From contig JANLIT010000002.1 of NCBI GenBank assembly GCA_024653945.1, positions 11,940 to 75,939 on the forward strand: a DNA stretch of 64,000 nt, given 5' to 3'. A program made the translations under genes and the position numbers. Each line of letters opens with the position of its first letter. The first letter of the stretch is position 1. The notes below the pieces were generated by a model. It worked only from the letters and a program-made list of their open reading frames with translations, was not told the DNA's origin and searched no databases. Below, one piece after another: positions 5,828 through 62,043 of this stretch. The stretch comes from Candidatus Campbellbacteria bacterium. GTDB taxonomy: Bacteria > Patescibacteriota > Minisyncoccia > Phycocordibacterales > EsbW-18.

Positions 5828-5880
5828 AAATCACGTTGAATCATCTCAAACTAAAGACAGAAACAAGAAAAGTTGCATAA

Positions 5881-5910
5881 TAAAAACCCTCGCTTCTGGC
5901 GAGGGTTTTT
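5881..5910. terminator. bidirectional terminator hairpin
   Basis: aaaaaccctcgc-ttct-ggcgagggttttta. Confidence 0.55.
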
Positions 5911-7059: not shown

Positions 7060-7510
7060 TTTTTGGTGTCCTTCTGGAAAAGACAACTGTTTGAACCTTA
7101 CGATTATCCCAATCGGTCGTCTTGAGTATTTTTTGAAGATGTAGAACCTCATCTCTCATACTCCTCGTTACAATAAAAATTGCGGGAGTTTGTATCTTTT
7201 TTAAGACTCTAAACCATCGAGCAACTTTTTGGAGGTATTTTTTACTGTAGTGGGGTTTTTCCGTTGAGCGTTTCTCCAAAAATTCTTTATCTTGAAAAGT
7301 TTCTACTTCATCAACGATTACTACCCTTCCCTTTGGTGAGGTACGTATCCGGTCACAATCGGGAAAATACGAAACTGCCATTTTTTTACGTTTTAGAAAT
7401 GGTATAAGTTCCTTCAAAACAAAGTATGTTTTCCCGGAATCACTTGTACCAACTAAAAAGACACTCTTCTTTTTCTTGAGTAAGTTATAAATCTTATTTT
7501 TACGGTTCAT
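7031..7510 (-). CDS. small P-loop NTPase
   Basis: Walker A VFLVGTSDSGKTYF, Walker B-like VVIVDEVE; ATG at 7510 preceded by TATAAT only ~6 nt upstream (leaderless-type start). Confidence 0.6.
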   Translation of the reverse strand: MNRKNKIYNLLKKKKSVFLVGTSDSGKTYFVLKELIPFLKRKKMAVSYFPDCDRIRTSPKGRVVIVDEVETFQDKEFLEKRSTEKPHYSKKYLQKVARWFRVLKKIQTPAIFIVTRSMRDEVLHLQKILKTTDWDNRKVQTVVFSRRTPKNEKDIISIK

Positions 7511-7532
7511 AGCTGAATTATATAAAAGAAAT

Positions 7533-7563
7533 ACGGAGAGAGGAACACTTCCCTCTCTCCGTA
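7533..7563 (-). terminator. intrinsic terminator after the rSAM-peptide pair
   Basis: minus-strand acggagagagg-gaagtgtt-cctctctccgt followed by atttctttt. Confidence 0.6.
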
Positions 7564-7575
7564 TGTAGTGCTGGA

Positions 7576-7698
7576 TCACTTCGTCCGGCACGGGATGTTC
7601 TTGGCCATCTTGCAGCCTGCGCCCGCCTTGGAGTGCTTGGAGCTGCAGGGACGCGGCTCGGAAGCCACAGCAATGCGGGTTCTGCGGTACTTACGCAT
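7576..7698 (-). CDS. 40-aa basic Cys-containing peptide MRKYRRTRIAVASEPRPCSSKHSKAGAGCKMAKNIPCRTK (candidate rSAM substrate/precursor)
   Basis: ATG 6 nt after the rSAM stop codon, SD-like GGGGGTGAAAG upstream, 3 Cys, ~62% GC against a ~40% background, followed by a terminator. Not in the ORF track because it is under 60 aa. Confidence 0.4.
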   Translation of the reverse strand: MRKYRRTRIAVASEPRPCSSKHSKAGAGCKMAKNIPCRTK

Positions 7699-7704
7699 GT
7701 TCTT

Positions 7705-9003
7705 TCACCCCCTTTCGTGTGCGTAGAAGTGGATAACGTCGCACTTATGCCTAGACGGTATCCTGTAGTCACCGCCCTCTACGAGAGCTAGGCCAATGCA
7801 ACTGTCGCAGTAATTCCGATTGCGACAGACCATGCACTGCTGCATCTCTCGAAGAGAGAACTGAGTGAGTACCTGTTTTCGTCGTCGGAGAATCTCGGCC
7901 AATGACTCAGAGGAAGTATCCCCCAACGGTACCCTGAGATCGAGACAAGGATAGACAACGCCCCGTGGGTCAATGGCTATTTGATCCCTACCAGCAAAAC
8001 ACACAGTGTGATTTCGACAGTCGCGATACTTCTTCTGGGTAGGAAAACCGCCGATGCGATCCAGAAAAGGCTTAAACTTCTCTTCCATCTCCTGATACGA
8101 AAGACGGAAAAGCACTTCTTTTCCTGGGCCACTACGGTTCGGTGTAATGTATGGACTGTAGAAAATCGACGCTCCGATTTTCGTTAGAACATCGTGGACC
8201 TCATCGATTCGGTCGATGTTGTGTTTTCCAACCAAAACCGAGAGTGTGACGGGTAGTCCGCACCGAAGCATCTGACGGACGCTCTCCTTGAGTCGATCAA
8301 ATCGATATACCGACCTGGTTAACTCTGAGTACCCAGTCCGTGTTTCATACACCGAAACCTGGATGTCGTACAGGTGAAATCGTGACAACTTTTCGACGGT
8401 ACCCAGAGTGAGAGCCGTTCCGTTCGTTTTTAGTTCCAGAACGAAACCAATCTCCTCAAGATCTTCCATCACAGAGATAGCGTCTCTGCGGAGAAAGAGC
8501 TCTCCTCCTGTAAGAAGAACAAAAACCACTCCCGCCGACTTCAATTCTTGTCCCAACTTCTGAATTCTGTCCCTGGACAAGCCCTTCTCATGGAAGTTGT
8601 CCAAATAGCACCAACTACAACGCTGGTTGCAAAGATACGTCAGCTCGAGATTCGCGTTGATAACCTGCCACTCGCGTATTGCGTAAGCAGACAACTCCTC
8701 TAATGCCGTCTTTTGGGTCCGAATCACTTTTTGTGGGAACCTGTACGCCGACTCATCAGACAAGGAACGAATCACTTCTTTGATTTCAGCAAAATCTGTT
8801 GTAATGTCACCACTATCCTCTGGACGAAATTGCTCCAGAAAATCGTTGGTGAGTTGATGCTGTGGTTCGTTGACAATTCTAACTGCCTGACTTGCAAGAG
8901 GACCCTCGAAAAAAGCTGATTTACGGGTCGTCTTATTAATGATGAATGAAGCGCCCCGAAAATCTCGTGAGATAAGGTTTTTCACGGCCACACCCCTTTT
9001 CAA
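7705..9003 (-). CDS. radical SAM enzyme with C-terminal SPASM-type auxiliary cluster domain and ~100-aa N-terminal extension (possible peptide-recognition domain)
   Basis: CNQRCSWCY (CxxxCxxC) about 120 aa in; C-terminal Cys cluster CFAGRD..YPC..CMVCRNRNYCDSC; GC higher than surroundings. Confidence 0.85.
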   Translation of the reverse strand: MKRGVAVKNLISRDFRGASFIINKTTRKSAFFEGPLASQAVRIVNEPQHQLTNDFLEQFRPEDSGDITTDFAEIKEVIRSLSDESAYRFPQKVIRTQKTALEELSAYAIREWQVINANLELTYLCNQRCSWCYLDNFHEKGLSRDRIQKLGQELKSAGVVFVLLTGGELFLRRDAISVMEDLEEIGFVLELKTNGTALTLGTVEKLSRFHLYDIQVSVYETRTGYSELTRSVYRFDRLKESVRQMLRCGLPVTLSVLVGKHNIDRIDEVHDVLTKIGASIFYSPYITPNRSGPGKEVLFRLSYQEMEEKFKPFLDRIGGFPTQKKYRDCRNHTVCFAGRDQIAIDPRGVVYPCLDLRVPLGDTSSESLAEILRRRKQVLTQFSLREMQQCMVCRNRNYCDSCIGLALVEGGDYRIPSRHKCDVIHFYAHERG

Positions 9004-9111
9004 AGAACTGTAGATGTCGCAGAAGTCTCTATCGTTCTGCTGGTGATAATAAAAGCTGCTACGTATTCTGTCAATACCTCCACAAAATCGACTTTAGAAA
9101 AATTTTATCCT

Positions 9112-9139
9112 CTACATTGCTGGGAATTCGACGAAAAAG
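9112..9139 (-). repeat. direct-repeat copy of the histidine-kinase 3' end (encodes FFVEFPAM*), att-like
   Basis: ctacattgctgggaattcgacgaaaaag aligns with 10702-10728 and 11403-11432, including the in-frame stop. Confidence 0.6.
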
Positions 9140-9142
9140 TGT

Positions 9143-10680
9143 TCACTTTTTAAAATATCCATTCTGTATGCTGTATTCTCTTGTTATCCCAAGGTGGCCA
9201 CATAAGTCTTCGTTGTGAGAAACAATCAGAATTGCACCCTTGAAGTTAGCGAGTGCCTCTGTAAATACAGAGATGGTAGAAATGTCCAAATTGTTAGTTG
9301 GTTCATCAAGAACTACACAATCAAAGTCAGCAATGGTTATCATCGCCAGAGAAAGTCGTGCCAACTCCCCACCGGAGAGTGACCCGGCTTTTTTATTTAC
9401 CTCTGGTGTTTCTCTAAAAAGAAATTGAGCCAAGTGTGTACGCAAAAGTTTGTCATCTGTTGTATGTGTAATACGCTGTATATTTTGAAGTACAGTAAGT
9501 TCTCGGGAAACCAAATCATAGTGCTGGTCTAAATACACCACCTTCAAACTTGGCGTTTTTTTGACTATGCCAACAAGTTTTGCAGGGGAGGTGTCGTCAA
9601 AAAGTGCTCTAAGAAGAAGTGTTTTACCAGACCCATTATCTCCCGTAATCCGTACCCTGTCTCCGGTAAACACATCAAAAGAAATATCCGATACCACTGT
9701 TTTATTTGGAAGAACGAGGTTGGCACCATCAACCGATACTACAAATCTTCTACCTATTTTTTTTGAAGGTACATCAAGCCGTACAATGTGTTTTTTAGAG
9801 AGTATGGCATCCTGCAAATCCTCTTCTTTTTCTTCTTTTGCACTCTTTAGTCTCGTGAGGTTCTTTCCTGATTGTTTCTCCGATTGTTCTTTAAAATATC
9901 CCTTTTCGTACGGCGACATATTGTTGTCCAGTTTCTCTTTTTTTCCAACAGATACAGACCTCTGCTTCTTTGTGTGTTCAACAACAAGTGCCAACTTCGC
10001 TTGTTTCACTATTTTTTTCTTTGCCTCAAACTGGCGCGTGGCAGCGGCGCGTTCGTTCTCAATCAATTGTGCATACGTCGTATAGGTACCTTCCGTGGTT
10101 CTAATTTTTTGATGTTCAATGGTCCAAATTTGGTTAGTTGTTGCATTCAAAAAGTCTATATCGTGTGACACGACGACATACGCACCCACAAAAACTTTTA
10201 GATAGGACTTCAGACGAGCAATTCCAGCAGAATCAAGATGATTGGTTGGTTCATCAAGTAATAGAATACCTGGGGCCAACACTCGAGCAAGAGAAAGATA
10301 TACTTTGATGTATTCCCCACCAGATAAGTTACTCATTTTTGAGTCGAAGGGTACTGTTTTTTTGAAAGGGTCAAAAACTCTTTCTCAAAAAGATGTTTTG
10401 AAACCGAGTGTTTGGATAAGAGAGTGGCAAGAGTGGCTTCTTTATCTGCATCTCTTTTTTGAGGAACAATAAATACTTTTCCATTCACTGTGCAAGAACC
10501 TGTGTCTGGCGCAATATCCCCATGTATCATTTTGAGCAATGTCGTTTTTCCTGTTCCGTTATCACCAATAAGACCAACACAATCTCCTGAAAACAGGGTG
10601 AGGTGCGAAATATGCCACAAAAGCTGATCTCTTATTGAGTAGGATGCGTCTTGTATGAGAATAAGAGGGTTCCTGTTCAT
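9143..10680 (-). pseudogene. ABC-F family ATPase (two NBDs, EttA/Uup-like), interrupted by a frameshift in a homopolymer
   Basis: Track ORFs 10333..10680 (Walker A GLIGDNGTGKTT) and 9143..10336 (starts MSNLSGGEY: signature, Walker B LLLDEPTNHLD, then a second NBD with GDNGSGKT, LSGGELARL, VVLDEPTNNLD) meet at a 7-T run (+ strand 10357-10363). Eight would restore one 500+-aa ABC-F reading frame. Confidence 0.7.
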
Positions 10681-22276: not shown

Positions 22277-25057
22277 TCAAATTTTATACATTGCGTTGAT
22301 TCCAGCTTCAAGTTCTTCGCGAGGACGGCCAAATTTTGCATAGGAAAGTTCCTTCAAGGTATCTACTTTCGTCATATCAGGTTTTTCTGGATACATGGTT
22401 GCGATTGAAAACGGTCGCTCTGTTTTATTTCGAACAAGCATCTTAAGGAATCCGTTGAAGTTGTCTACGTTCATCAAATCGTTTGCGGTAAACACGGGAG
22501 CGAACTGTTTTTCCAAAAATTCAGCATCATCAGAACCAACACGGAAGGAGCACATGGAACCGACGTTGCCAAAGACCGCGTCTTTAATTTTTTCATCCAA
22601 CTGTTTAATGTACTGATGAAAAATACTGAGTCCCAATTTGTATTTTCGTGCTTCCGAGAGAATGGTGGCGATTGAATTTGTGGTGATATTTTGAAATTCA
22701 TCAATGTAGAGATAAAAATTTGGAACATCTCCTTTGCCAACTGCATCAACGCGAGACAGTGCGGCCATGAGAATTTTTCCCACAATAATAAGTCCGACGA
22801 GGTTTGCGTTGATATCACCAAGTCGCCCCTTTGAGAGGTTTACTAAAAGAATTTTACGCTTGTCCATAATATCTCTGAAGTTAAATGCCGAATGTTTCTG
22901 CATCACAATAGGACGCATGATGTCATTGGCAAGAAAGATGTCAAATTTGCTCGTGATGTACGGAACCATGTTTGCAAGAGATGCTTCCCCACCCGCTTTT
23001 TCGGCAACTTCACGCCAAAATTGAACAACCACAGGATTTTTACATCTTGAGAGTTTCAAATCACGAAATGCTTTCTCTGACATGACACGCGACACATCAA
23101 ACAGTGTGTTGCCTGTATCAGGATCTTCAATCACGAGCATTGTCGCATTGCGGAAGTACTGCTCAAACATTGGTCCCATACTCTCAGGCACTCCTCCGTA
23201 CAATTTCTGGAAGATAGAAAAGAGTTCATTCACCACAAACGTCTTCTGTTCAGGGAACGCGGGGTCATATTCCAACATATTGAGTCCCATTGGACGTGCC
23301 GTGTACGCTGGGTCAAAATAAATAACGTCATCAAAACGCTCTTGAGGAACCGATGCGAGTACTTCCATAAGGTCGGTCCCGTGAGGGTCAATCATGCACA
23401 CACCTTCTCCATTCTTAATGTCCTGTATAATCATGTTTTTCAAAAGCGTCGTCTTTCCTGTTCCTGTCTGACCAATACAATAGAAGTGGCGCAACCGATC
23501 TCCCTCCGTCATGTAAATTGGCGTCTTGGTGTTACCGTACACGTTTTCGCCAAGCAACAAACCTTCAGTTGGCAAATCAACTGGTGCAGGAGAACCTCCT
23601 GCTTTTGCACGTTTGAGTTCACGCGATGAGTCACTTCCCACAGCAGGAACGTGGGCGAATGTTGCGAGCTCACGAAGATTCATGGGCAATATCTCATCTG
23701 TGGAGAAAAGTCGGAATGCAAATTCTTTTACCAATCCAGTGAGTTTTGTTTTAGTGAAGCGTGTAAACTTCAATGCGTTTCCACGCGGATCTTCAAGCTG
23801 GCTGAATGTTGCCTCAAGTTCAGACAAAATTGCATCTGAGCGCACTTGTGATGTTGATGACGCAAGGAGACGAATGTTTGTTTCAACGATGGTTTGGCTA
23901 AATTTTTGTTTGAGCTGTTCAATGGTGATGTCGTCCACTGGTCGCTCGCGCTCTTTTTCTTTTTTCTTGTCTTCTTTCTCTTTTGACGCAAAAAAGAATG
24001 AGTGCACCTCTTTACCAACTGACACGACAACCGATTTCTCTGCAAGCGCTTCCTTCATCGGCGTACCTTTCGCCATTTTTTCTATCACTTTTCGAATTTT
24101 GTCCGCATAATCGGTTTCTGCCGGTCGAATCAACACCTGCAATGCAGCGCCTTCACCAACGCGCAACAACTTTCCAAACGCCGACAAAAGAATCGTCAGT
24201 GGGTCGTAATCAAAATGTTCATGTGTTTTGAGAGGAAGCATATACGGCCGTGCGTATGCAGCAATAGAGCCGGCGGTTTTACCTTCTGGAAAGAAAATAT
24301 TGTAATCATTTTTGCGGTCGGCGACACGCGCTTGTGGAAAAATAGAGAGCAACTGTTTCTCAAAAATATCTTTCTTTTCCGTTGGTACCGACATATAGAG
24401 CGTGACGTGTTCAAGGTGCGCTTCAACAGCAAGTTCAATAGAGAAGTACTTTTTCTTTGAACCTTTTTCTGACGCAACTGAGAGTGCGCCGGCGTAGAGT
24501 TGTTCCATTGATGACAGGAGCTCTTTAAGCGGGCGTTGGTGCTCCTTTGCATCCTTGGCATCAAACGGGAGCGTTACCTCTAGGAGCGTCATGTGGAGCG
24601 CCTTCCAGAGTGGTTCGCCTTCTTTGATACCTTTTGTTATATATCCTTCTTTTAAGTATTCGGATAAAAAACGATGAAAGTCGTCTTCAACGTGCGGATT
24701 ATCCATTTTTTCAACAATAGACAGCGCATTACGTATTCCCTTTTCCTGCATTACCGAGAGAAGTTCAGCAATAATGGTATCGTGCTCCTCTGGGGCAAGG
24801 TCCAAAACAACGGCATCAATTTCTGGCTTCAGCATCTCGTGACCTTTCGCAAGCACTGTTTCTGGCGCATGCCCAGCATATGTGTGTATGACTTCTTTTT
24901 CTGGCGTTGGATGAGAGAGCTCGTGTGTTCCTGCATCTACATTTTTTTCAAGTTGTTTGAGTCGTTCACGCAAAAAATTCACCTCTTCATTGGGTGTGGT
25001 GAACTTTTTTTCAGGTGTCAAAGAGAACGTCTCCATATGCACTTTAGTATAGCGCAT
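22277..25057 (-). CDS. VirD4/TrwB/TraD-type coupling-protein-like P-loop ATPase with ~500-aa soluble N-terminal region (no TM helices)
   Basis: Walker A CIGQTGTGKTTLL followed ~25 aa later by MIDPHGTD (the GxTGxGKS...DPxG arrangement of type IV coupling proteins); Walker B FYLYIDEFQN. Confidence 0.65.
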   Translation of the reverse strand: MRYTKVHMETFSLTPEKKFTTPNEEVNFLRERLKQLEKNVDAGTHELSHPTPEKEVIHTYAGHAPETVLAKGHEMLKPEIDAVVLDLAPEEHDTIIAELLSVMQEKGIRNALSIVEKMDNPHVEDDFHRFLSEYLKEGYITKGIKEGEPLWKALHMTLLEVTLPFDAKDAKEHQRPLKELLSSMEQLYAGALSVASEKGSKKKYFSIELAVEAHLEHVTLYMSVPTEKKDIFEKQLLSIFPQARVADRKNDYNIFFPEGKTAGSIAAYARPYMLPLKTHEHFDYDPLTILLSAFGKLLRVGEGAALQVLIRPAETDYADKIRKVIEKMAKGTPMKEALAEKSVVVSVGKEVHSFFFASKEKEDKKKEKERERPVDDITIEQLKQKFSQTIVETNIRLLASSTSQVRSDAILSELEATFSQLEDPRGNALKFTRFTKTKLTGLVKEFAFRLFSTDEILPMNLRELATFAHVPAVGSDSSRELKRAKAGGSPAPVDLPTEGLLLGENVYGNTKTPIYMTEGDRLRHFYCIGQTGTGKTTLLKNMIIQDIKNGEGVCMIDPHGTDLMEVLASVPQERFDDVIYFDPAYTARPMGLNMLEYDPAFPEQKTFVVNELFSIFQKLYGGVPESMGPMFEQYFRNATMLVIEDPDTGNTLFDVSRVMSEKAFRDLKLSRCKNPVVVQFWREVAEKAGGEASLANMVPYITSKFDIFLANDIMRPIVMQKHSAFNFRDIMDKRKILLVNLSKGRLGDINANLVGLIIVGKILMAALSRVDAVGKGDVPNFYLYIDEFQNITTNSIATILSEARKYKLGLSIFHQYIKQLDEKIKDAVFGNVGSMCSFRVGSDDAEFLEKQFAPVFTANDLMNVDNFNGFLKMLVRNKTERPFSIATMYPEKPDMTKVDTLKELSYAKFGRPREELEAGINAMYKI

Positions 25058-25067
25058 CTATACCAAC

Positions 25068-28000
25068 CTATCCTACATTCTCACGTTGGATAACGACAGC
25101 AAGTGCACGCCTAATGAAAGCCTCTGTAGTTTCTTCCCCCCTAAAGATTCCTCCAATAGGACGCAGGCCTGAGTCTCGTGAAAGCATCATGAGGTAATGC
25201 TGGAGTTTTTTGGCTGGAGTGTCATCGGGAAATTGCATTTTCTCAAGAACCTTACGAGCATCCATTGTTTTCCACTGTGTCCACTCTGACCATTCTTCTT
25301 TGAGCGTTCCAAATATCGCACGCATATCACGATTCATCTCATGTTCGATATGTTCAGGACTCAATAAGTGTTCTAGAGAAAGGTTATCTGATACTAAAGG
25401 TCCAAGCCCTTCCCGTTCTTCGAACGGAAGATTTTCTATAGTGCCCGTAGTGTCCTCGGGTAAGGTTGCCGTTTCAGTATATTCTGTAGATGTATCATTC
25501 ACCCCTTGCTCCACGCTTCCTGCGAGGTCGCTAGCGACGACATCTTCTGGTATCTCTGTAGCAACGTCTTCGGGAACATTATTTGGAACAATTCCTTCCT
25601 CAAACCCTGAGGAGGGTATTTTTTCTATCCCATGTGTGCTATCCGGATGGAGCACGTCACTGTAATTAATACTTGAAGTATTTGAAAATTCAAAATGTGC
25701 CACTTCCCCATTTCCTGCAGGAACATACTGTAAAATGTCCCCTTCATGAACAAGGTTGAGTTCTGCAATTGGTATCTCGCGACCATCAGGAAGATGCGCC
25801 ACCGAATGAGACCACGCGTCAGCAAATCCTTTTTTATCAAGATGAAATCTTTCTCCAAGTTCTTTTGCTGAGTTCCAAATATTTCCTCCACGTTCAATAT
25901 CAATTAGTTCTGGGTGTGGAGCAGATTCAAATACACCTGATTCAACAGCGTCGGCATGGTGAGCTGACTTAATAATTTCTGCAATGTTTGCAGTACTTGC
26001 AGCATCTTTTGAATAGACAATTTCGTCTTGTGGACCAATACCATGGAACGTCCCACGGGACGGAATCATTGCAATATCATTTTCTGAAAGTTCTGTATTT
26101 CCCGATACTGATTTAAACATTTCTGGTGCCCGCTTTGGCCAACCAAACATATCTGGCGCAAAATGTCGCAGTACGTAACCAGCCATACTAAAGCCCGCAC
26201 CCATAATGGCACCGTGAACCATTTGATCTCGGAGAAATTTCTTTTGTGAGTCTTTAATTTTTTCCTCATGCAGACCGGTGAGTGCGTCAAGTCGTTGTTC
26301 TAGTTCAGCTTTGTGATTTGCATCACCAACACCCTCATGTGAAGCAACAAATGTAGAGGCGTGGCTCATTGCTTGAACAATATCTAGTTGATTTTTGAGA
26401 CGGTCATTAAACGTACCAAAATCCATTTTGCTGGTATATATTTTATTCTCGGTGTAGTAAATGCGCTCCTCAAGCTGTGAAAATAGTGTCTCCTTTTTGG
26501 CTTCATCGGTTTCATTTTCTATACGTTGTATGAGATGATTAATTTTCTTTTTTGATTCGTCTACATGAATAATATTTTCCGCAGTTGTACTTGTATCATC
26601 AACACCTCGGCGTGCACCTGCTTGTTGCTCTTTTAGTGTTTTTTGCGCGCGTCGTCGAGCCATAAAACCACCCATACCAGCGGCGGCAAGAGGAAGACCG
26701 AGTGTTCCGAGTAACGCACCCGTCATCGCACGAGTAGCAAAACCAGCACCAAAATAAATACCACGTTCAGTTACAATATCCTTGAGAGAACGTACCCACA
26801 CTTTTTCATCGGTGATTTTTTGTATTTGCGCCTCTGCTTCAGGATGTGTTGAAAATAGCTGGTCCATACGTACGCGAGCATATATGGTGTTCATCTGCTC
26901 GGCTAATGTCACCCTATCAGAACCGTTTTTTGCTTCGAGAAGTAGGAGCGCATTGGCGCGTGCTTGGATGAATTGTTTTTCAGCTTCCTCATATTTTTTT
27001 CGTTCTGAACGAGACGCGGTCTCACGTGCCCATTCTGTTGGAATATTTGTAAACACATGGGCTGCTGTATTGAACGAGCGCAGTGTTTCTTCTTCTGCTT
27101 CATTTTCCGCTTGTATTCCGTTTGTGTAGAGAACTTCAAGAGTGCCTTCTTTGTCAAAAACAGCGTCAAGACCAACTTCACGTGTACCAGTTACTAATTT
27201 TTCAATAACATCCCTGTATTCACCTATACCCGCTTTTTGTAGATCCTGCGCTGTTGCTTTTTCAAGTTTTGCAGATTGGTATCCTTTTGTAATACCACGC
27301 CAAAATCGTCCAAAAAATCCTGCCTTTTTATTTTCTTCTGCTCCATGCGCTGCAGCATCCTCCTTAATCTTACCGAGTATAATTTGTTGCAGGTTTTCTT
27401 GTACGAGTGCTTTTTGCCCGATGGTAAGTTCACTGTACCCAGGAACTGTTTCAAGATCTTCTGCCCTCATTCCTGTAAATATTTTTTCAAATTTCTCGTT
27501 TATCTGTGTCAATCTAGCCACAGATGGAAATTTTTCTGGCTTTTCTTCAATTGGTAGATTTGCAGGAGCTTCTGCGATAACCTTCACAGCATCGTGCGCA
27601 CCCTCAATTTGTTCTTTCGTTATACCAACCTCTACCCCCGTCGTAAGAATACTCAAAAGATGTCTTTTTCTTGCTCTCTTTTCCTTCAATTCTTCCGAGG
27701 AAAGTTTTTTTGTACGAAAATCTGTTTCAATTCCTTCTAATTCGTCGGTTAATTTCAAAAACTCATCTTTTGTCTTACGAGAAAGCGTCTCATCATTTTC
27801 TATTCCTATACGCCGACTGTCCAAATACTCCCGTTTCTCTTTTGGCAAAACTATCGTTTCTCCTACCGTTGGTTCTATTTTTGTCTCATCAAAATGCTGG
27901 AGAAAACTTTTATGTATCCTTTCAAACTTATCTCCTTCCTCTTCTGGTATCACGGCAGTATTAACTGTTTCGGGTACACTAACCGCGGTGGGAACTTCTT

Positions 28001-28487
28001 CGGATACGGCTTCTTCTTGAGTAGAAACTGGTGTCACTGTTTCTGGACTAACGGGAACGCTCTCTTTTTCCAGAGAGACGGTGAGTATCCCCGCATTGAT
28101 ACTAATTTTCTTAATTGGAGCATTAAATTTTTTCTCAAGATATTTTACGATACCCGGAATAAGATCGGGTAGATATTTAGTAAGCTTTCTTGTAACCAGT
28201 GCTCGTTTAACCATCCCTGCCCGAACTTTAAAATCACCCGCTTTTAGACGCTGACCATCACTTTCTAGTGATCCATCAACACCAAATTCACCCGCAAGAT
28301 CGTGAGTAAGCTCTGCAGAAATTGAGATTTTGTTTCCATCTCCACCAACCTTTAGTCCACGCACCTCTGCAAGCCCCTGCAGAAGAGTTCGAATCTCATT
28401 CTCCAGTTCTGGGGTAGTCAAAGATTCTTCTTTTAAAGTTTTTTCTTTTGCAGGTTCTTGAGGCAACTGTGGTCCTTCAAATGTCAT
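25068..28487 (-). CDS. 1139-aa protein with central membrane segment(s) and extended coiled-coil/charged regions; unknown function
   Basis: hydrophobic GIYFGAGFATRAMTGALLGTLGLPLAAAGMGGFM near the middle; 11-nt gap to the coupling-protein-like gene. Confidence 0.55.
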   Translation of the reverse strand: MTFEGPQLPQEPAKEKTLKEESLTTPELENEIRTLLQGLAEVRGLKVGGDGNKISISAELTHDLAGEFGVDGSLESDGQRLKAGDFKVRAGMVKRALVTRKLTKYLPDLIPGIVKYLEKKFNAPIKKISINAGILTVSLEKESVPVSPETVTPVSTQEEAVSEEVPTAVSVPETVNTAVIPEEEGDKFERIHKSFLQHFDETKIEPTVGETIVLPKEKREYLDSRRIGIENDETLSRKTKDEFLKLTDELEGIETDFRTKKLSSEELKEKRARKRHLLSILTTGVEVGITKEQIEGAHDAVKVIAEAPANLPIEEKPEKFPSVARLTQINEKFEKIFTGMRAEDLETVPGYSELTIGQKALVQENLQQIILGKIKEDAAAHGAEENKKAGFFGRFWRGITKGYQSAKLEKATAQDLQKAGIGEYRDVIEKLVTGTREVGLDAVFDKEGTLEVLYTNGIQAENEAEEETLRSFNTAAHVFTNIPTEWARETASRSERKKYEEAEKQFIQARANALLLLEAKNGSDRVTLAEQMNTIYARVRMDQLFSTHPEAEAQIQKITDEKVWVRSLKDIVTERGIYFGAGFATRAMTGALLGTLGLPLAAAGMGGFMARRRAQKTLKEQQAGARRGVDDTSTTAENIIHVDESKKKINHLIQRIENETDEAKKETLFSQLEERIYYTENKIYTSKMDFGTFNDRLKNQLDIVQAMSHASTFVASHEGVGDANHKAELEQRLDALTGLHEEKIKDSQKKFLRDQMVHGAIMGAGFSMAGYVLRHFAPDMFGWPKRAPEMFKSVSGNTELSENDIAMIPSRGTFHGIGPQDEIVYSKDAASTANIAEIIKSAHHADAVESGVFESAPHPELIDIERGGNIWNSAKELGERFHLDKKGFADAWSHSVAHLPDGREIPIAELNLVHEGDILQYVPAGNGEVAHFEFSNTSSINYSDVLHPDSTHGIEKIPSSGFEEGIVPNNVPEDVATEIPEDVVASDLAGSVEQGVNDTSTEYTETATLPEDTTGTIENLPFEEREGLGPLVSDNLSLEHLLSPEHIEHEMNRDMRAIFGTLKEEWSEWTQWKTMDARKVLEKMQFPDDTPAKKLQHYLMMLSRDSGLRPIGGIFRGEETTEAFIRRALAVVIQRENVG

Positions 28488-54782: not shown

Positions 54783-55042
54783 ATGTTTTTTGTGTTAAAC
54801 AAAAAAACGGCTACAAGTGCCGCCGCTCTAAGAGTGGTCGACCTCAGTAGGACCTCTGACTCTTGTACGTGTGAGTCTGCCTACTTTCTCCGGCCTTGTG
54901 AAAACAACTATACTCAATCCCTCTCATAAATGCAACATCCCATGCGCAAAGCCCCGCTCGAGTACGAGCGGGGCTTTCCTTACTACTTACTACTTCCTAC
55001 TTTCTACTCTTGGCTTTCTACCTACTACTTTCTACTTCCCAC

Positions 55043-58000
55043 TTATCTTTCTTCAACATCTGGATCATCAAGCTCTGAATTGTCGAGTGGGTCTGCACAT
55101 CCTGGATCTACTGGGCCACCCGCTCCATCAAAATCCTTTAGCCCATCGCCATCATTATCAAATGTGTCATTACACTGTGCAATAGGGAGATCTCGCTCAT
55201 CGTTGTCTTCAGTAGTTGTACATCCGGGGTCAGCTGGGTAATCAATGAGGCCGTCGGGTGTACTTTCATTGTCCTCACCGTCACGACACTGTGGAATAGG
55301 TGCATCATATTCAGTCGGATCACATAATGCTCCGATACATGATGTTGGACACAGTGCCGGATTGTCACTTTGGCACGAACCACATCCCGGGTCATTATCA
55401 TCTGGAGTTAAAAGATTTCCATCTGCACCTGCAAAATCAATAAATGCATCCCCGTCATCGTTGTTTATCTCATCAAAACATTCCGCGTAGTGCACATCGA
55501 CAGTGACCGAGTCAGAGATTTCAAGACCGTTATCAATATTGGTGCAGGTAAGTGTAAACACTGTATTGTCGGCCATAATCACACCGCTTGCCTCGCTACC
55601 GTCATCCGTTTTTGCACCAATCCAGTTTGGTACACCTCCAGTGCCTTCGCAGTTTTGTACATTTGTCGTCTCCCACGTAAGGTTTACTGGGACACCGATG
55701 AGAACATCAACTGGAACGGAAACATTATTCACATACAAATTTACGGTGCCCGAGGATGCATCTGGTGTGTAGGTAAGATTGAAGGTAATTGAACCACCTA
55801 AAGATGAAATTGTTTGTGAATGAGTTGGTAACACAAGATTTTTTGCACTCCTCACCACAAGAGTATATCCGGGTTTGTCTGCTGAAATTGTATAGTCATA
55901 CCCTCCTAGAATATCTCCGTATGATATAGGACCGATTATTTGGCCTGGTTCGTGTATCAAAACGGGACCAGTGATGTCCCACGCTGTTGGTATGTTTGAC
56001 CTTACGATAATATTTCCAACCACATCCACAGAACATTGAGCAGTTAATGAGTTGCTTGTAACGGTCACGGTTTTTGGTGTTCCTTCGGTTATGTATGTTG
56101 TTACACAAGAAGAACCAAATGAATTACATGCGGTTCCGCCACCCACACCACCATTGCTGGTATCCCATGTGTATGTTCCGTTACCTCCGCCTGCAGTGAG
56201 AGTGACGGGAACTTCAACACCTATGGGTTGGGTTGCGGGTGAACATGTTGGACCCACGTTCACCGTCACACTTGCGGGTGCACTCGTTCCTCCTGGGCCA
56301 GAACAGGTAATTGTAAATGTTGTTGCGCTGGTAAGTGCTATTGATGTGTCTGAACCCGCTGGTGTGTTGGCAGGAATAACAAAACCTGACGTTCCTCCAG
56401 CGGTCACCGAACACGATGTTGCATTTGTTGAACTCCAGTTAAGTGTTGCGGTGGTGTTATAAGTAATAGGATTTGCTGTCGCGGTGAGTGTTGCTGTTGG
56501 TGTGATATTCACAAGAACACTATCCGTTGCGCTTCCCCCTGCGTTTGCACAGGTGATTGTGTATGTCCGTACGGTCGCGCCGTTTGCAATACTTGTCTGC
56601 GCATACGTACCATTGGGAGAGTATGTTTTTGAACCAGTCCACCCCGTAACCGCCGGTGATGCTGATGCCGTACATGACGTTGCATTTCCAGAAACTATCC
56701 ATTGCAAATCAACGTTTGCTCCTCCGGCAGGAAGTGACAATGGACCTTCACCATATGAACTACCGCCTGACTGTTTTCCTTGAAGATTAACGGTTGGTGC
56801 TGGGAGTGCAGTAATCGTCAGATTAAATGTATCCGAACGAACAGTTGCTCCTGATGTACCAGTAACGGTAATGGGGTAGGTACCTGCAGTAGCAGTTCCA
56901 CTATTAATCGTCAATATAGGCGCGGGCGTACACGTCAGGTTTGGTGTACAAGGTGTTGAAGAATATGAAGCAGATGCACCACTTGGAATTCCTGATGACG
57001 TGAGCGCAACAGAGGCTGCAGTTCCTGCTGTTTTTGTAACGGTGATTGTGTTGGTGACCGATAGTCCTTGCACGACACTTTTATCGCCTGCGTCTGCCAC
57101 CGTGAAGTTGAAGGCTGGTGCAGTCACGATAACTCGGCAGGATTCAGATTCATTAGTCCAAGGAGTGGGGAGCTCTGACCAAGGTTCATTTGAGCCTTTT
57201 CTTACCCTAACATCATAGGTCCCTTGAGTTGAAAACGTACGGGTACATGATTGGGTAGAACACGCCGTTGTTCCACCGTCCATATCCCATTGGTATGTTG
57301 TGCCGATACCCCCAGAGGCCGTAAGTGTGACACTGCTTCCAGCTGTGATTGATGAAGAAAGTGGTGAACAGGATGCAATACATCGAGGTACGGAACCCGT
57401 CTTTGCGGCGTACAAATAATCGGTATAATCAGGAGGATTTGGAGCTCCATCTGACACAAGGTCAATTTGATACGCACAGTTCACCGGAGAACCCGACGAG
57501 GGATATGGTACCGAGAAAGTGTGAGAGTAGCCCGCTCCTGTTCCTGATGTGTCCGGTAGCATTGTAAACGAAGTGATACTTTTCCGGATTTGTGTGGAAA
57601 GATAATCGGAAGCACCCCACGCCCTGAACACATACCAAGACACCAGACTCACAGGGAACGAACAACGGGGAGATGTGTTCTTCACCGTGATTGACGCCTG
57701 ACCAGTGGCTGGGTTGGTTGTTATCTTATCGCTATCGGGATAGGAAAAGGATTGGCCATCTACACCTTTAATATAGCTATCAGGATTACAGGCAATAGTT
57801 GTCGGCGTACACGTTTTGTCTCCACCAGACATAGTAACCGAACCACCCACACAGTTAGAGGAAGCTGTCCATCCGCCCCAATCTGTCCCATCCCCAAAAT
57901 AACCAGTTAAAGATACAACCGTGTTGGCATTATACGTTTCTGTACAATTTGTGTGGCCCGAAACATTACCACAATCAATACCGTTACCACCAGAAACTCC

Positions 58001-58696
58001 CACAGGCGCTGTAATGTACAAAGTGCCGTACCCTATTGAATTTGGATTAATGGTGAGTGTGTACTCGGTAACGGCGACGGGAGTAAATGTTGCAGTAACT
58101 GTACAATTGGCCATAATTGGCCCCGTGGTAAAGGTTGTTCCATTAAGTGTTCCTCCACAACCCGAGGCCGATGCGGTGTAATTAGCATTTGGAGTAACGG
58201 TGAAAGTTGTGCTACCACCGGAACTAACAGATCTCGAAGCTGGAGAAATAGTACCCTGTGCTCCAGATGTAGGTGACGTTCTTCCCAACACGGTGTACGA
58301 AGCGCCAGTAACGGTGACAGTAACATCGCGGGATAATGAGTATGAATCATTTTCGCATGTAATCGTAAATGTTGTTGTGGTTGTGAGTGCGGTTGATGCA
58401 TCAGAGCCGTCTACTGGTAATTGTGGTCCAAAACCAGGACCACTACCAGAACAAATATATGCGTGACTAGAGTTCCAAGTAAGTGTAGTGGTTTGACCAG
58501 AACCAACTGAGGTTGGACTTGCAGAGAACGACGTTATGGCAACAGGTTGATCACAGGGATACTCCTCTGGTGGACACTGTTCTATAGCAAGAACTGGCTG
58601 CGGACTGATGAGCGACCACGCGACAAAGAGCGCACACCCAACGAGCATGCCAGCTGAAATATTTTTTAAAAGACGTGTGTGTTTTAGAAAAAACAT
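55043..58696 (-). CDS. giant (1217 aa) secreted Thr/Ser/Gly-rich beta-sandwich repeat protein with three C-terminal Cys-bracketed Asp-rich DxDxDG-type (calcium-binding-like) repeats
   Basis: N-terminal signal/anchor MFFLKHTRLLKNISAGMLVGCALFVAWSLISP; C-terminal repeats such as QCNDTFDNDGDGLKDFDGAGGPVDPGCADPLDNSELDDPDVEER*. Confidence 0.8.
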   Translation of the reverse strand: MFFLKHTRLLKNISAGMLVGCALFVAWSLISPQPVLAIEQCPPEEYPCDQPVAITSFSASPTSVGSGQTTTLTWNSSHAYICSGSGPGFGPQLPVDGSDASTALTTTTTFTITCENDSYSLSRDVTVTVTGASYTVLGRTSPTSGAQGTISPASRSVSSGGSTTFTVTPNANYTASASGCGGTLNGTTFTTGPIMANCTVTATFTPVAVTEYTLTINPNSIGYGTLYITAPVGVSGGNGIDCGNVSGHTNCTETYNANTVVSLTGYFGDGTDWGGWTASSNCVGGSVTMSGGDKTCTPTTIACNPDSYIKGVDGQSFSYPDSDKITTNPATGQASITVKNTSPRCSFPVSLVSWYVFRAWGASDYLSTQIRKSITSFTMLPDTSGTGAGYSHTFSVPYPSSGSPVNCAYQIDLVSDGAPNPPDYTDYLYAAKTGSVPRCIASCSPLSSSITAGSSVTLTASGGIGTTYQWDMDGGTTACSTQSCTRTFSTQGTYDVRVRKGSNEPWSELPTPWTNESESCRVIVTAPAFNFTVADAGDKSVVQGLSVTNTITVTKTAGTAASVALTSSGIPSGASASYSSTPCTPNLTCTPAPILTINSGTATAGTYPITVTGTSGATVRSDTFNLTITALPAPTVNLQGKQSGGSSYGEGPLSLPAGGANVDLQWIVSGNATSCTASASPAVTGWTGSKTYSPNGTYAQTSIANGATVRTYTITCANAGGSATDSVLVNITPTATLTATANPITYNTTATLNWSSTNATSCSVTAGGTSGFVIPANTPAGSDTSIALTSATTFTITCSGPGGTSAPASVTVNVGPTCSPATQPIGVEVPVTLTAGGGNGTYTWDTSNGGVGGGTACNSFGSSCVTTYITEGTPKTVTVTSNSLTAQCSVDVVGNIIVRSNIPTAWDITGPVLIHEPGQIIGPISYGDILGGYDYTISADKPGYTLVVRSAKNLVLPTHSQTISSLGGSITFNLTYTPDASSGTVNLYVNNVSVPVDVLIGVPVNLTWETTNVQNCEGTGGVPNWIGAKTDDGSEASGVIMADNTVFTLTCTNIDNGLEISDSVTVDVHYAECFDEINNDDGDAFIDFAGADGNLLTPDDNDPGCGSCQSDNPALCPTSCIGALCDPTEYDAPIPQCRDGEDNESTPDGLIDYPADPGCTTTEDNDERDLPIAQCNDTFDNDGDGLKDFDGAGGPVDPGCADPLDNSELDDPDVEER

Positions 58697-58842
58697 AATA
58701 TAAAATAGTTTGTTGTTGAGAACAGCAATCGTTCTCAGTGTACTGTTAGTATAGTACCGCTGTATACAACTAATACCAATTGCGAGTGTTAATAAAAAGC
58801 CCCGCCTAGCACACTGTGCGTAGGCGGGGCTTTTCTTTCTAT

Positions 58843-58923
58843 TTTTTGTTATTTGCTATTTGCTATTTGAATTGCTTCCTACTTCCTACAAGCTACAAGC
58901 TACAAGCTACAAGCTACAAGCTA
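58843..58923. repeat. tandem heptanucleotide repeats: (tatttgc)~3, (cttccta)2, (caagcta)5, in the spacer between the two giant genes
   Basis: read directly. Confidence 0.7.
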
Positions 58924-58924
58924 C

Positions 58925-61369
58925 TTATATCTCTTCAATTGTTGGGTCGTCTAACTCCGATGGGTCCAATTCACTTGCACATCCTGGGTCGGCTTCTTTA
59001 TTGGGAGGGGTAACTTCCCAGTAATCAATCTTTCCATCACCATCATCATCAAGTCCGTTGTTACATTGTGTTACTGGTTTAATTGGCGCCGGTTTACAGC
59101 GTGGATCTGTCGGGTCAACATCACACTGCGGAGGTTTTTGATCACTTTCACTATCATCTTCCCCGCTCGTGCACCCTGGGTCGTCATCTCTTGTGCCGCG
59201 AATTCCATCTTTACCAAGATAATCAACAAAAGTATCGCCATCATTGTCTAACATATCGGAACACTGCGGTGGGCGCGTTCCAATTTGTACTGAATCCGAA
59301 AGAGTACCGCTCGTTGCGGCCACAGTTACAGCTGCAGTTGGAACTACGACTTTGGTACACGTAATGGTGAACATGAGCAAGTCATCAGAAGTAATTGGAT
59401 TACTTGGCAACGTGCCATTATCAGGTTTAGTACCTGTCCAACCACCACTAGCAACACACGAACCCACACCCCTACTCGTCCAAGAAAGCGTTGCTGATTT
59501 GTTGTACAAAACTCTCACTGGTCCATCTGATAGCGGACCACCAACTTCACCTGCCTTAAGGTCAAGCTTGGGACCCGTATCATCGTCGTCGTCTCCAATT
59601 GGAGTATAGGTAATTGTAAAGGTGATGTCGGAACCTGTATCTGGGATACTTTGTGATGCCGTTGCTGGTTCAATAACTGGACCTGTAAAGTTTGGAAGTG
59701 TTGGAACGTTTGAAATGGTGTAATCGCCCGGTTTTTGGTTTGCATACGTTTCACTTTGTGATGGTGTGTCCTGTTCAAGCGGTGCACCACTGCTTCTTGT
59801 GATACTCCATGTTGTTGGTTGGTTTGATACAACCCGCACACTTCCTTTGACAACAACGTCACATGTTCTTGTGACACCCCCGCTAGTTAAGCTCACTGTT
59901 TTTGTGTTTGCGACTGCGTACGCTGGGGTACATGGTGAAACGTTTGCCTCACACGTAGGGCTCCCGCCCGTATTCCATGTGTATGGAATAGTTGCATTTT
60001 GTGCTTCGATAGATGCTGGAACAAGAACTCCTTTTTGTTGTGTTGCAGGAGAACATGCGAGTCCTACAGGCGGTACTGCAGAAACCGTTACAGCACAGGT
60101 AGCAGTTTCTATACCCCGCGTGACAACGACTGATTTTGCACCCGCAGTACCCCATTGTGTTGTAAATGTCGCCGTGTTTCCACCGGTTGCCGGCGTACCT
60201 CCTCCTGTCCAACTGTATGTTCCAGAACCATTTGTTGCTGTAAATTGTTGGTTCGTGTTGAGAGGAACTATTACTGGTGTCGGGGAACAGATAAGAGCTG
60301 TTGGGGGGGCGACGGGGACCGTTACCGAAACACTGTCACTGTCACTTCCTCCTGCATTTGAACAAATGATGGTGTATGTTCTGTTTGAAGTGCCGTTCAC
60401 AATACCTGCTTGCACATTTGTTGGAGAAACTCCTTTTGTTCCACTCCACCCAGCAACTGTCGGCGAAGCGGATGCAGTACACGTTGTTGGGTTGTTTGTT
60501 GTTATCCATTGAAGATCTATTGAACCACCCGTTGCTGGTAGTGAGATTGGTCCGTTCGTATAACCACCCGTATTTGCAATGCGACCCCTAAGGGCGACTG
60601 TCGGTGGTGGATTAGCAATATCATCGTTGGTAATCGTACACGTCTTATTCTGTTCTCCGGCGAGTGTTACAGAACCACTTGCAGTACAATCGCCTCCCCA
60701 CGTGCCGGCCGTATATCCAGGAAGATTGGTTTCAGACACGGTGTATGTTCCTGCGTGAAAGTAGTTGCTGGCACCACTTGTTACTGATGTGGTATTTACG
60801 CGCAAAGGAAAGGCCGAAACGAGTGCGGTTCCGCCACTGTTGTTAATAACAGTTTTAGTAACGGTAAGGTGTGGTCCACACAAAGGCAGAGGGTAGGACG
60901 CAAATTCATAGTCAAAAACCGTGTAGGCCGGCATTTGTGCAAAATCTGGGTTTGTTGTGGGTGCACTTGGACCTTCAAAGAAATCGGATTGATATTGACA
61001 CGTGGAAGGTTGTGACCTTGATATTGTTCTTGTTATACCAGGTCCAATTGAATTCGTGGCATCACTATAGAGCGTTTGTGTTGCAAGGAATGTCGTCCCC
61101 GAGCCCCCTTGCCACTCATCAAATACCTTGTATGTAGCCATGTGAATTGAATACGTACACTCTGTTGAGAAATTTTTTACTTCAATTGACGTGGGAAGAT
61201 TGCTGGTAACGCTAAATGGATTACCGTTTGGCTGACGGAGGTCTGCTCGTGGATTAGGAACGCATGTTGCATACGCGGGTGTTGGTGCAACAAAAAAAGC
61301 ACCGAAGACCGTGAGGGTGGCGAGGAGAAGTGTGGTGTTACTTATTTTAGATACAGTGTGTGTGGTCAT
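58925..61369 (-). CDS. giant (814 aa) secreted paralog with the same C-terminal Cys/Asp-rich repeat module and the same C-terminal ending
   Basis: signal peptide MTTHTVSKISNTTLLLATLTVFGAFFVAPTPAYA; internal domain ~45% identical to the neighbour's; C-terminus ..TQCNNGLDDDGDGKIDYWEV....DPGCASELDPSELDDPTIEEI*. Confidence 0.8.
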   Translation of the reverse strand: MTTHTVSKISNTTLLLATLTVFGAFFVAPTPAYATCVPNPRADLRQPNGNPFSVTSNLPTSIEVKNFSTECTYSIHMATYKVFDEWQGGSGTTFLATQTLYSDATNSIGPGITRTISRSQPSTCQYQSDFFEGPSAPTTNPDFAQMPAYTVFDYEFASYPLPLCGPHLTVTKTVINNSGGTALVSAFPLRVNTTSVTSGASNYFHAGTYTVSETNLPGYTAGTWGGDCTASGSVTLAGEQNKTCTITNDDIANPPPTVALRGRIANTGGYTNGPISLPATGGSIDLQWITTNNPTTCTASASPTVAGWSGTKGVSPTNVQAGIVNGTSNRTYTIICSNAGGSDSDSVSVTVPVAPPTALICSPTPVIVPLNTNQQFTATNGSGTYSWTGGGTPATGGNTATFTTQWGTAGAKSVVVTRGIETATCAVTVSAVPPVGLACSPATQQKGVLVPASIEAQNATIPYTWNTGGSPTCEANVSPCTPAYAVANTKTVSLTSGGVTRTCDVVVKGSVRVVSNQPTTWSITRSSGAPLEQDTPSQSETYANQKPGDYTISNVPTLPNFTGPVIEPATASQSIPDTGSDITFTITYTPIGDDDDDTGPKLDLKAGEVGGPLSDGPVRVLYNKSATLSWTSRGVGSCVASGGWTGTKPDNGTLPSNPITSDDLLMFTITCTKVVVPTAAVTVAATSGTLSDSVQIGTRPPQCSDMLDNDGDTFVDYLGKDGIRGTRDDDPGCTSGEDDSESDQKPPQCDVDPTDPRCKPAPIKPVTQCNNGLDDDGDGKIDYWEVTPPNKEADPGCASELDPSELDDPTIEEI

Positions 61370-61449: not shown

Positions 61450-62043
61450 TTATTGTCGAGCAACGTACGCAATGTGCACCTTCACACCCGTAGCACCACT
61501 GGAAAGCGTTATATTTACATCATTTCCGTCCTTTGTGGCATAGAAATTAGTCACAGGATTCTCTGTAGGTGTTGCCTCTTTCACAATCGTCCACCCTTGT
61601 GTGGTCAAAAGATTCTTGAAAAGAGCGATGTTTTCCTCGAGTGTCTTTGCCGACACATATTCAACTGTTGGAAGCTGTTCGTTACGGTTTGTGTACGTAA
61701 GTTTTGCACTAGTACCAATAGTGACACCTTCTTCAGGTAGAAGTTCCTGCGGAAAACCTGCAATAATCTGTCCTTGTTCGGCAACTTCAGACGTGTAATC
61801 CTTTTCTTCTTCTACAGGAGCTACTGGTTGTTTGTTCAGAAGAGCAAAGAGTCCCCACCCAATGAGAATAATAAGCAAAATAATCAGAAACACACGAAGT
61901 GGTTTCATGTGGTGTCCTTGTGTCGGCATTCCGCCAGAAACTTCCTGACTAAGTGGTGTTGTGCGCATGTCTTCCATATATAAAAGGTTAGTAGAATAAA
62001 TGTTGTATGTAGTACTACAAATAATACACCTTATATAGTACAC
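61450..62043 (-). CDS. membrane-anchored hypothetical protein (true start probably an internal Met near 61910-61980)
   Basis: single TM LRVFLIILLIILIGWGLFALL followed by a ~130-aa soluble domain. Confidence 0.45.
   Translation of the reverse strand: MYYIRCIICSTTYNIYSTNLLYMEDMRTTPLSQEVSGGMPTQGHHMKPLRVFLIILLIILIGWGLFALLNKQPVAPVEEEKDYTSEVAEQGQIIAGFPQELLPEEGVTIGTSAKLTYTNRNEQLPTVEYVSAKTLEENIALFKNLLTTQGWTIVKEATPTENPVTNFYATKDGNDVNITLSSGATGVKVHIAYVARQ

Follow-up and report, generated by a model that had tools for sequence, protein, structure and literature searches.

What is the acidic, cysteine-bracketed module that closes two adjacent secreted proteins of a Candidatus Campbellbacteria cell? Members of this group, the candidate phyla radiation (CPR) or Patescibacteria, are believed to spend their lives in attachment to other cells, and to our knowledge their surface proteins are almost entirely uncharacterised. 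In a 64,000-nucleotide stretch of contig JANLIT010000002.1 (the window), two tandem genes of the ORF (open reading frame) list, both on the reverse strand like all the parts of A and B given below, encode secreted multidomain proteins: the upstream gene B (58925..61369, 814 residues) and its downstream paralogue, gene A (55043..58696, 1217 residues). An initial annotation had called these proteins giant, which is overstated for such lengths, and had read their C-terminal modules as calcium loops closed by disulfides, followed by a common acidic ending that might serve as a sorting signal. Our analysis makes it probable that each module is a short array of disulfide-clamped, Ca2+-binding beads of the type catalogued as NF033662, serving as an end-piece of the protein and finished by a partly family-specific tail that is not a general sorting signal.

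Each module holds three cysteine brackets. In A, unit 1 (C1073-C1105; 55382..55480), recognised by a regular expression and by the ligand map described below, and unit 2 (C1137-C1159; 55220..55288) are degenerate, with loop insertions of one to two residues (two in unit 2). Between them lies a linker with four cysteines, CQSDNPALCPTSCIGALC (residues 1108-1125; 55322..55375), which is conserved in the A-orthologue of another locus, L005 (8432-11989, 1185 residues, with a C-terminus as in A). Unit 3 of A (C1175-C1200; 55097..55174) is terminal and near-canonical, reading QCNDTFDNDGDGLKDF...DPGC. In B, unit 1 (C703-C733; 59171..59263), recognised in the same way, is followed by a collapsed loop, CDVDPTDPRC (C749-C758; 59096..59125), of ten residues and without the DxDxDG loop, and by the terminal unit, B unit 3 (C769-C797; 58979..59065), QCNNGLDDDGDGKIDY...DPGC, which is the best NF033662 stretch. 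The three repeats first ascribed to each protein thus hold as brackets, but B has two units and a collapsed loop, and the consensus as then written fits three of the six brackets (A unit 3, B unit 1 and B unit 3). The loop was found nowhere else in a six-frame translation of the window.

The number of units varies among orthologues (one, two plus the loop, or three), while the terminal unit and the tail are always present. Orthologues of B are P0016, P0103, P0275 and the proteins of loci L001 and L003; the collapsed loop has a counterpart, CQTDPSNPEC, in P0103, and a full unit stands there in P0016 and in A. The module of the L003 orthologue has just one unit and exactly two cysteines, and the cysteine count without the signal peptide is even in both proteins of the window (40 in A, 22 in B). 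Both observations support a disulfide within the unit, which we infer to join the two cysteines of the bracket.

To which family does the unit belong? A search with the C-terminal 122 residues of B reported small proteins made of tandem, cleaner copies of the unit, as well as a fragment (P0001) with the same tail. A profile of 50 positions, built from the last unit and tail of five orthologues (profile A2), was searched exhaustively against 1.84 billion representative proteins and retrieved 2,850 clusters at E≤1e-3, of which 831 were at E≤1e-10; single proteins contained as many as about 41 units. Nine repeat-rich proteins from this set were tested against the NCBIfam model NF033662, 'acidic double-disulfide repeat', and all nine passed it, at 81-261 bits for a cutoff of 41. 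Across 1,632 units in 167 proteins, the span from Cys to Cys is 20-21 residues, Asp is found in 79% of the units at the fifth position past the closing Cys (+5) and Glu in 78% at the eighth (+8), and the next unit starts 11-17 residues past the closing Cys. The bracket together with D(+5) and E(+8) fits fully in A unit 3, B unit 1 and B unit 3, and with insertions or substitutions in A units 1 and 2. By sequence, then, the unit of A and B is homologous to the accepted members of NF033662, with which it shares the opening Cys, the DNDGDG-type loop, the DPGC and an acidic xSxxDxSE ending; in its general form it would read C-x-D-G-Φ-D-N-D-G-D-G-x-Φ-D-[YF]-P-x-D-P-G-C-x4-D-x-[ST]-E, in one to three copies among the orthologues.

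Two differences set A and B apart from the bulk of the family. The top 148 retrieved proteins have a median of 9 and up to about 40 units, against two to three in A and B, and the nine-residue extension that follows the last unit of A and B was not seen in any of these other 148 proteins. The family as a whole is varied in architecture: its partner domains include subtilase, an archaeal pilin N-terminus, and PD40 and HAF repeats, and the array may stand at the end or inside the protein, as 21 of the 148 proteins end within 25 residues of the last unit and in 94 the array is followed by more than 90 residues. Scanning of the canonical repeat proteins reported no Pfam model for the unit. We found no paper that mentions the NF033662 repeat by name and no experimental work on the family, and a literature search on CPR calcium-binding adhesins found nothing relevant. 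The repeat family has thus been recognised and curated without being studied, and A and B join it as new, short members.

Do the beads bind calcium? A single-sequence search of the PDB gave only weak EF-hand matches and a weak match to teneurin-4. A profile of 136 two-unit segments (profile A3), which is dominated by canonical units more than by A and B themselves, matched the C-rich domain of teneurin-4 (7plp_A) at E 4.7e-4 and 23.2 bits, from opening Cys to closing Cys, through the profile stretch 'apaCsdglDnDgDgliDfpaDpgC'. This domain was solved at 1.5 Å for human residues 834-871 (7PLP; PMC9058538). It binds three Ca2+ through E835, D840, D843, N844, D845, D847, D851, D854 and D856 and through backbone oxygens, and its sites I and II match thrombospondin type-3 geometry (PMC9058538). 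Its six cysteines form three disulfides (1-3, 2-5 and 4-6), with C838 paired to C857 (PMC9058538). The bracket cysteines of A and B map to C838 and C857. Of the nine side-chain ligand positions, seven are kept in A unit 3 and in B unit 1 and six in B unit 3, the conserved positions being D840, D843, N844, D845, D847, D851 and D854. From this mapping, the Asp and Asn side chains of the unit most likely hold Ca2+, at sites that would be those of the N-terminal two-thirds of the teneurin C-rich domain, resembling thrombospondin type-3 sites.

Structure prediction points in the same direction. AlphaFold2 run with a five-sequence alignment placed the repeat region below a pLDDT (predicted local distance difference test) of 50, which was unusable; the alignment of 136 two-unit rows solved this, and the resulting model has a mean pLDDT of 86.2, almost no secondary structure and no helix of four residues or longer. 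A unit 2 lies inside the confidently predicted model. When the model was compared with the PDB by Foldseek, 7PLP was the sole neighbour (17 columns, root-mean-square deviation 1.9 Å, 59% identity), at an E value of 3.2 that is not significant. The unit would then be a small bead that lacks regular secondary structure and is held shut by a disulfide linking its cysteine pair. It resembles the teneurin domain in this near-absence of secondary structure and in the core C-x-D-x-x-D-N-D-G-D-G-L-x-D-...-D-P-x-C. The teneurin domain, unlike the bacterial unit, occurs as a single copy and has a conotoxin-like C-terminal part and three Ca2+ sites, whereas the bacterial units come in tandem and end in a D(+5)/E(+8) pattern of their own; the structural likeness is local, over 17 residues.

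Other calcium-binding families fit less well. Type-3 repeats of thrombospondin, as in the calcium wire of thrombospondin-1 and COMP, share with A and B the disulfide-stitched, Asp-rich loops of the DxDxDG type, the scarcity of secondary structure and the occurrence in extracellular adhesion proteins, but differ in Cys spacing and unit length, and the Pfam model TSP_3 (PF02412) found nothing at E≤1 in full-length A and B or at E≤10 in their C-terminal fragments. A bacterial case of such likeness is the Cys-rich adhesin CglD of Myxococcus, whose twelve DxDxDG motifs have been matched to COMP. In an EF-hand two helices flank a 12-residue loop whose last residue is Glu or Asp, and a dockerin is a pair of duplicated loop-helix segments. 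The units of A and B have a similar DxDxDG-like loop, and a C-terminal position on secreted proteins that, as for type I dockerins, suggests docking; they differ from both in having a Cys bracket in place of the helix-loop-helix and no Glu or Asp at loop position 12. Dockerin type I (PF00404) was not matched by full-length A and B or by their C-terminal fragments, and no cohesin was identified. Excalibur (PF05901) and Calx-beta gave no match at E≤10 in the C-terminal fragments. The EF-hand matches were all sub-threshold, with EF-hand_6 at E 0.24, and the AlphaFold2 model has no flanking helices; apart from the SpaA_2 and PKD matches given below, Pfam and NCBIfam scans of A and B gave sub-threshold matches to EF-hand, DUF7501 and NF033662 only. 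The idea of disulfide-closed, thrombospondin type-3-like calcium loops is thus supported by the 7PLP profile match and by a confidently predicted fold of a calcium-binding type, but not as membership in any of the Pfam families that had been named.

Calcium is not the only metal that such a motif could bring to mind. The cysteine-rich core of teneurins, CxDxLDNDGDGLxDCxDPDCC, was aligned with the Pfam MopE motif by Tucker et al. (PMC3278476), and the canonical repeat proteins have sub-threshold matches to this 'putative metal-binding motif' (PF11617), at E 0.0017 to 0.86 and 10-19 bits for a gathering score of 27. Binding of copper or of some other transition metal by the units, the proposal made for MopE-type motifs, is nevertheless extremely unlikely: A and B do not match PF11617, the ligand set of the unit is all oxygen (Asp, Asn and backbone), which fits Ca2+, with no His, Met or free Cys, and the only solved relative of the unit binds Ca2+ (PMC9058538).

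The last closing Cys is followed by the tail. A ends in ...DPGCADPLDNSELDDPDVEER, B in ...DPGCASELDPSELDDPTIEEI and the A-orthologue of L005 in ...DPGCDDALDVSELDDPDVEEF. In all seven tail-bearing proteins exactly 17 residues follow the last Cys, with the pattern xxxxDxSE + LDDPx[IVL]xE[IRF], and SELDDP is invariant among them at an overall identity of 35-50%. The tail can be divided into two parts, the canonical unit ending and a family-specific extension, which are ADPLDNSE + LDDPDVEER in A (residues 1201-1217; 55046..55096) and ASELDPSE + LDDPTIEEI in B (residues 798-814; 58928..58978). As D(+5) and E(+8) are usual in the 1,632 units, the first eight residues of the tail are part of the repeat; this xxxxDxSE ending of the last unit probably gives ligands or packing. 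The common acidic ending noticed earlier is real, with 17 residues in both proteins, but 8 of these 17 are an ordinary unit ending, and the similarity of A and B reaches far beyond the last ~45 residues. SELDDP after a unit was found in none of the other 148 family proteins, while a linker of the form SELDP-x-V-x-C is present in 5 of 1,054 canonical units. Because such linkers occur and SELDDP does not, the extension, LDDPxΦxEx, looks like a variant of a rare inter-unit linker that has turned into a protein end; it was found in one orthologous gene family only.

The same linkers allow another reading, that the extension is the stub of a further unit that was lost, kept for packing on the last unit, and that the module gives only generic stabilisation. 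In the SELDP-x-V-x-C linkers the Cys of the next unit stands about where A and B end, and the number of units varies from one to three among orthologues. Seven invariant positions and an invariant length, in both paralogue lineages and in at least four genomes, are more than would be expected of a neutral remnant, and we regard this history as very unlikely.

Could the tail be a sorting signal after all? Signals such as LPXTG and PEP-CTERM combine a motif, a hydrophobic helix and a basic tail, and they occur on several proteins per genome together with a cognate enzyme. The initial annotation had suggested sorting or attachment, and a dedicated enzyme (sortase, exosortase or rhombosortase-like) might process the ~45 C-terminal residues. 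A motif conserved at the extreme C-terminus would suit this, and such a signal does close several repeat-family proteins unrelated to A and B: 6 of the 148 continue after the array into a sorting-type tail with a transmembrane (TM) segment and basic residues, and in seven proteins (P0003, P0005, P0010, P0011, P0163, P0186 and P0249) a PEP-CTERM-like end, CGLG[AF]EL...RRRR or similar, directly follows the last unit. The tail of A and B, however, is acidic and has neither a hydrophobic helix nor a basic end, about half of it is ordinary repeat sequence, it is carried, in the genomes scanned, by one orthologous gene per genome (two after the duplication) at one locus, and no peptidase or transpeptidase adjoins in any locus examined. 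A genome-wide sorting signal is thus not supported on composition, distribution or context, and processing by a dedicated enzyme is extremely unlikely.

Where else is the tail found? DNA was scanned for sequences coding for D-[P/N/..]-S-E-L-D-D-P with a stop codon directly after; variants such as the D-V-S-E-L-D-D-P with which the L005 A-orthologue ends escape this pattern, which makes the counts lower bounds. At least two loci were found in 185,579 species genomes (L001 and L002) and at least one in 241 million metagenome records (L003, from the same organism as L002), and two further tail loci are L004, in the complete genome CP064977, and L005. For A, GTDB species genomes gave 44 pattern matches and no confirmed one, the source metagenome-assembled genome (MAG) not being a species representative. 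All the tail-bearing genes stand at one syntenic place, in the order divergent nusA, small membrane-anchored protein, tail gene or genes, and rplJ-rplL, and the genes downstream of rplJ-rplL are the same as in the window. No sortase, peptidase or Dsb-type gene is adjacent at the tail loci examined.

At this locus A and B are, judging from their alignment, tandem paralogues. BLASTP aligned A630-1217 (55046..56809) with B252-814 (58928..60616) at 35% identity and E 1e-66, collinear over about 600 residues that, in A, comprise Ig-like, PKD-like and prealbumin-like domains and the C-terminal module. A second common domain, A295-439 (57380..57814) against B35-164 (60878..61267), was aligned at E 3e-7; it is a 'head' with four cysteines (CVPNPRADLR...) that is N-terminal in B and internal in A, and for which Pfam has no model. 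The paralogous internal domain seen earlier is thus confirmed, but the similarity is wider and covers the whole C-terminal two-thirds. The initial annotation had counted as refuting its reading a C-terminal likeness due to tandem duplication alone, with no third carrier and no predicted calcium-binding fold. The similarity of A and B does go back to tandem duplication, but more carriers of the tail exist, all of them orthologues, and a calcium-binding fold is predicted. As L005 carries both paralogues in tandem, the duplication is old and the tail was kept by both lineages.

Both proteins have the look of exported ones, as the initial annotation had noted. Their N-termini, read by eye rather than by a predictor, open with a basic n-region, after which a hydrophobic core some 16 residues long leads to a small-x-small site: in A (residues 1-37; 58586..58696) the hydrophobic stretch is AGMLVGCALFVAWSLI and cleavage is predicted after VLA, before IEQ, and in B (residues 1-34; 61268..61369) TLLLATLTVFGAFFVA is followed by predicted cleavage after AYA, before TC. 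The Thr/Ser/Gly-rich composition was likewise confirmed (T 15%, S 9-11%, G 10-11%). Pfam scans of the full-length proteins reported only SpaA_2, a domain of prealbumin-like fold, in B (residues 167-246; 60632..60871; PF19403, 37 bits, cutoff 25) and a sub-threshold PKD in A. Directly before the repeat module of A, a last Ig-like beta-sandwich domain with two cysteines (residues 1006-1066; 55499..55681) has four strands in AlphaFold2 model 1, at a pLDDT of 70-92 over fragment residues 1-61. The product of B is the MAG protein NUW02_00815 (P0012, 100% identity over 100% of the length). A and B would therefore seem to be an old tandem pair of Sec-exported, Ig-domain-rich proteins of the Candidatus Campbellbacteria cell, located at its surface or outside it.

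Taken as a whole, the module would most likely be a calcium- and disulfide-rigidified acidic end-piece on these two paralogous exported Ig-domain proteins. Several observations weigh against it. A and B score below the curated NF033662 cutoff of 41: full-length A has no match and its C-terminal fragment 6.3 bits, full-length B has 24 bits, and the C-terminal fragment of B and the orthologue P0275 come closer, with 37.9 and 37.8 bits. The low scores can be explained by the units being few and partly degenerate. Equivalents of the teneurin ligands E835 and D856 are absent from the units; their place may be taken by D(+5) and E(+8) past the closing Cys. The teneurin domain has six cysteines and the bacterial unit two, and only the 1-3 pair has an equivalent. 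The tail was seen only on orthologues at one locus, yet the scans left out the rest of the source genome. Finally, an invariant SELDDP and an exact length of 17 residues are not easily explained by a merely structural end-piece, and the terminal unit is kept where other units are lost, as in the L003 orthologue. The invariance of the tail and the retention of the terminal unit suggest a specific interaction, which the end-piece explanation leaves open.

A candidate partner for such an interaction lies next door. Directly upstream of B and co-oriented with it, a small gene (61450..61917, reverse strand) encodes a protein with an N-terminal TM helix and an ectodomain of about 130 residues, without an informative Pfam match. 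Its counterparts are at 1527-2060 in L001, 9375-9986 in L004 and 5094-5612 in L005, and it shares 45-74% identity with the genes in the same position of L004 and L005. The terminal unit and the invariant 17-residue tail could then be a Ca2+-dependent, dockerin-like element that binds this ectodomain, fixing the C-termini of A and B to the cell surface and leaving the head domain pointing outwards. The small protein is encoded on the same strand 5-80 bp upstream in all four loci with a visible upstream region, conservation in the C-terminal region is highest in the terminal unit and tail, and A and B have no other recognisable anchor. Related proteins with the same head point the same way. The head is also the N-terminus of TM-anchored paralogues, with 80% identity to that of P0013 (NUW02_03380) of the same MAG, and in P0013 and its relatives a B-type head and a SpaA_2 stalk are followed by a TM helix and a cytoplasmic domain in place of the repeat module; P0013, P0019, P0028 and P0039, from this MAG and related genomes, are all TM-anchored at the C-terminus, so that the module of B stands in the position of the anchor. 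The adjacency of the small protein could, however, be plain synteny beside nusA, its ectodomain has no recognisable fold or family, and the module has neither the helices of a dockerin in the AlphaFold2 model nor a Pfam dockerin match. As a hypothesis, docking to the upstream protein is the most attractive rival and is consistent with the TM anchor at the same position in the paralogues, although we hold it to be unlikely. Bolder still, and improbable, is the proposal of an undescribed, Ca2+-dependent tethering pair of the cohesin/dockerin kind, made up of the co-operonic small protein and of the terminal unit with its tail (C-x4-D-x-S-E-L-D-D-P-x-Φ-x-E-x-COOH). If true, it would hold large Ig-domain adhesins on the surface of Paceibacteria (CPR) without a covalent or transmembrane anchor.

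The ends of the TM-anchored paralogues have a peculiarity of their own. In P0013, P0019, P0028, P0039 and P0074 a Gly run is followed by an LPXTG-like 'SQVPYTGLGTS', a TM helix, RRR and a conserved cytoplasmic domain of about 300 residues, and such a domain after an LPXTG-like motif is an odd combination for a sortase-type signal.

Several features around the pair were recorded as well. In L002 (833-2061), L003 (3044-4272) and L004 (12914-13435), the tail gene is separated from rplJ by one or two genes for small secreted proteins with cysteines, 167-173 residues long and mutually homologous; they are absent from the window, where gene A and rplJ are 260 bp apart. In this gap, between the end of A and the start of rplJ, a terminator-like hairpin with a T-run (54806-54824, reverse strand) suggests that A/B and rplJ-rplL may be separate transcription units; a promoter and terminator scan gave no enrichment over shuffled sequence, and Rfam found nothing credible in the 52-64 kb region, including no rplJ (L10) leader. 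The L7/L12 ORF (53646-54194, reverse strand) has 182 residues, against 136-138 in its counterparts in L001 and L003, with about 45 additional N-terminal residues rich in Ala, Thr, Pro and Lys; the start may be mis-set, or the extra stretch may be genuine.

Farther away in the window, also on the reverse strand, the region 4013-10336 looks like a maturation and export cluster of the RiPP (ribosomally synthesised and post-translationally modified peptide) type, with a radical SAM/SPASM enzyme (7705-9003) between ABC-transporter genes (4013-5827 and 9143-10336) and small unannotated ORFs. In 22277-28487, at the close of the ribosomal-protein cluster and immediately downstream of secY and map, an ORF of 1139 residues without a Pfam match (25068-28487) is followed by one of 926 residues (22277-25057) with a weak match to VirD4, the coupling protein of type IV secretion systems.

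The module of A and B is itself an ordinary, short instance of its family. What is unusual, as a hypothesis, is the strictly conserved tail together with the conserved small membrane-protein neighbour, a modest and clade-restricted curiosity. For the biology of these cells, the analysis offers a concrete reading of the ends of two CPR surface proteins, as disulfide-clamped calcium beads from a catalogued but unstudied repeat family. For the family, it links a large group of prokaryotic repeats, with thousands of clusters and neither a Pfam model nor any literature that we could find, to a solved calcium-binding structure, which aids its annotation.

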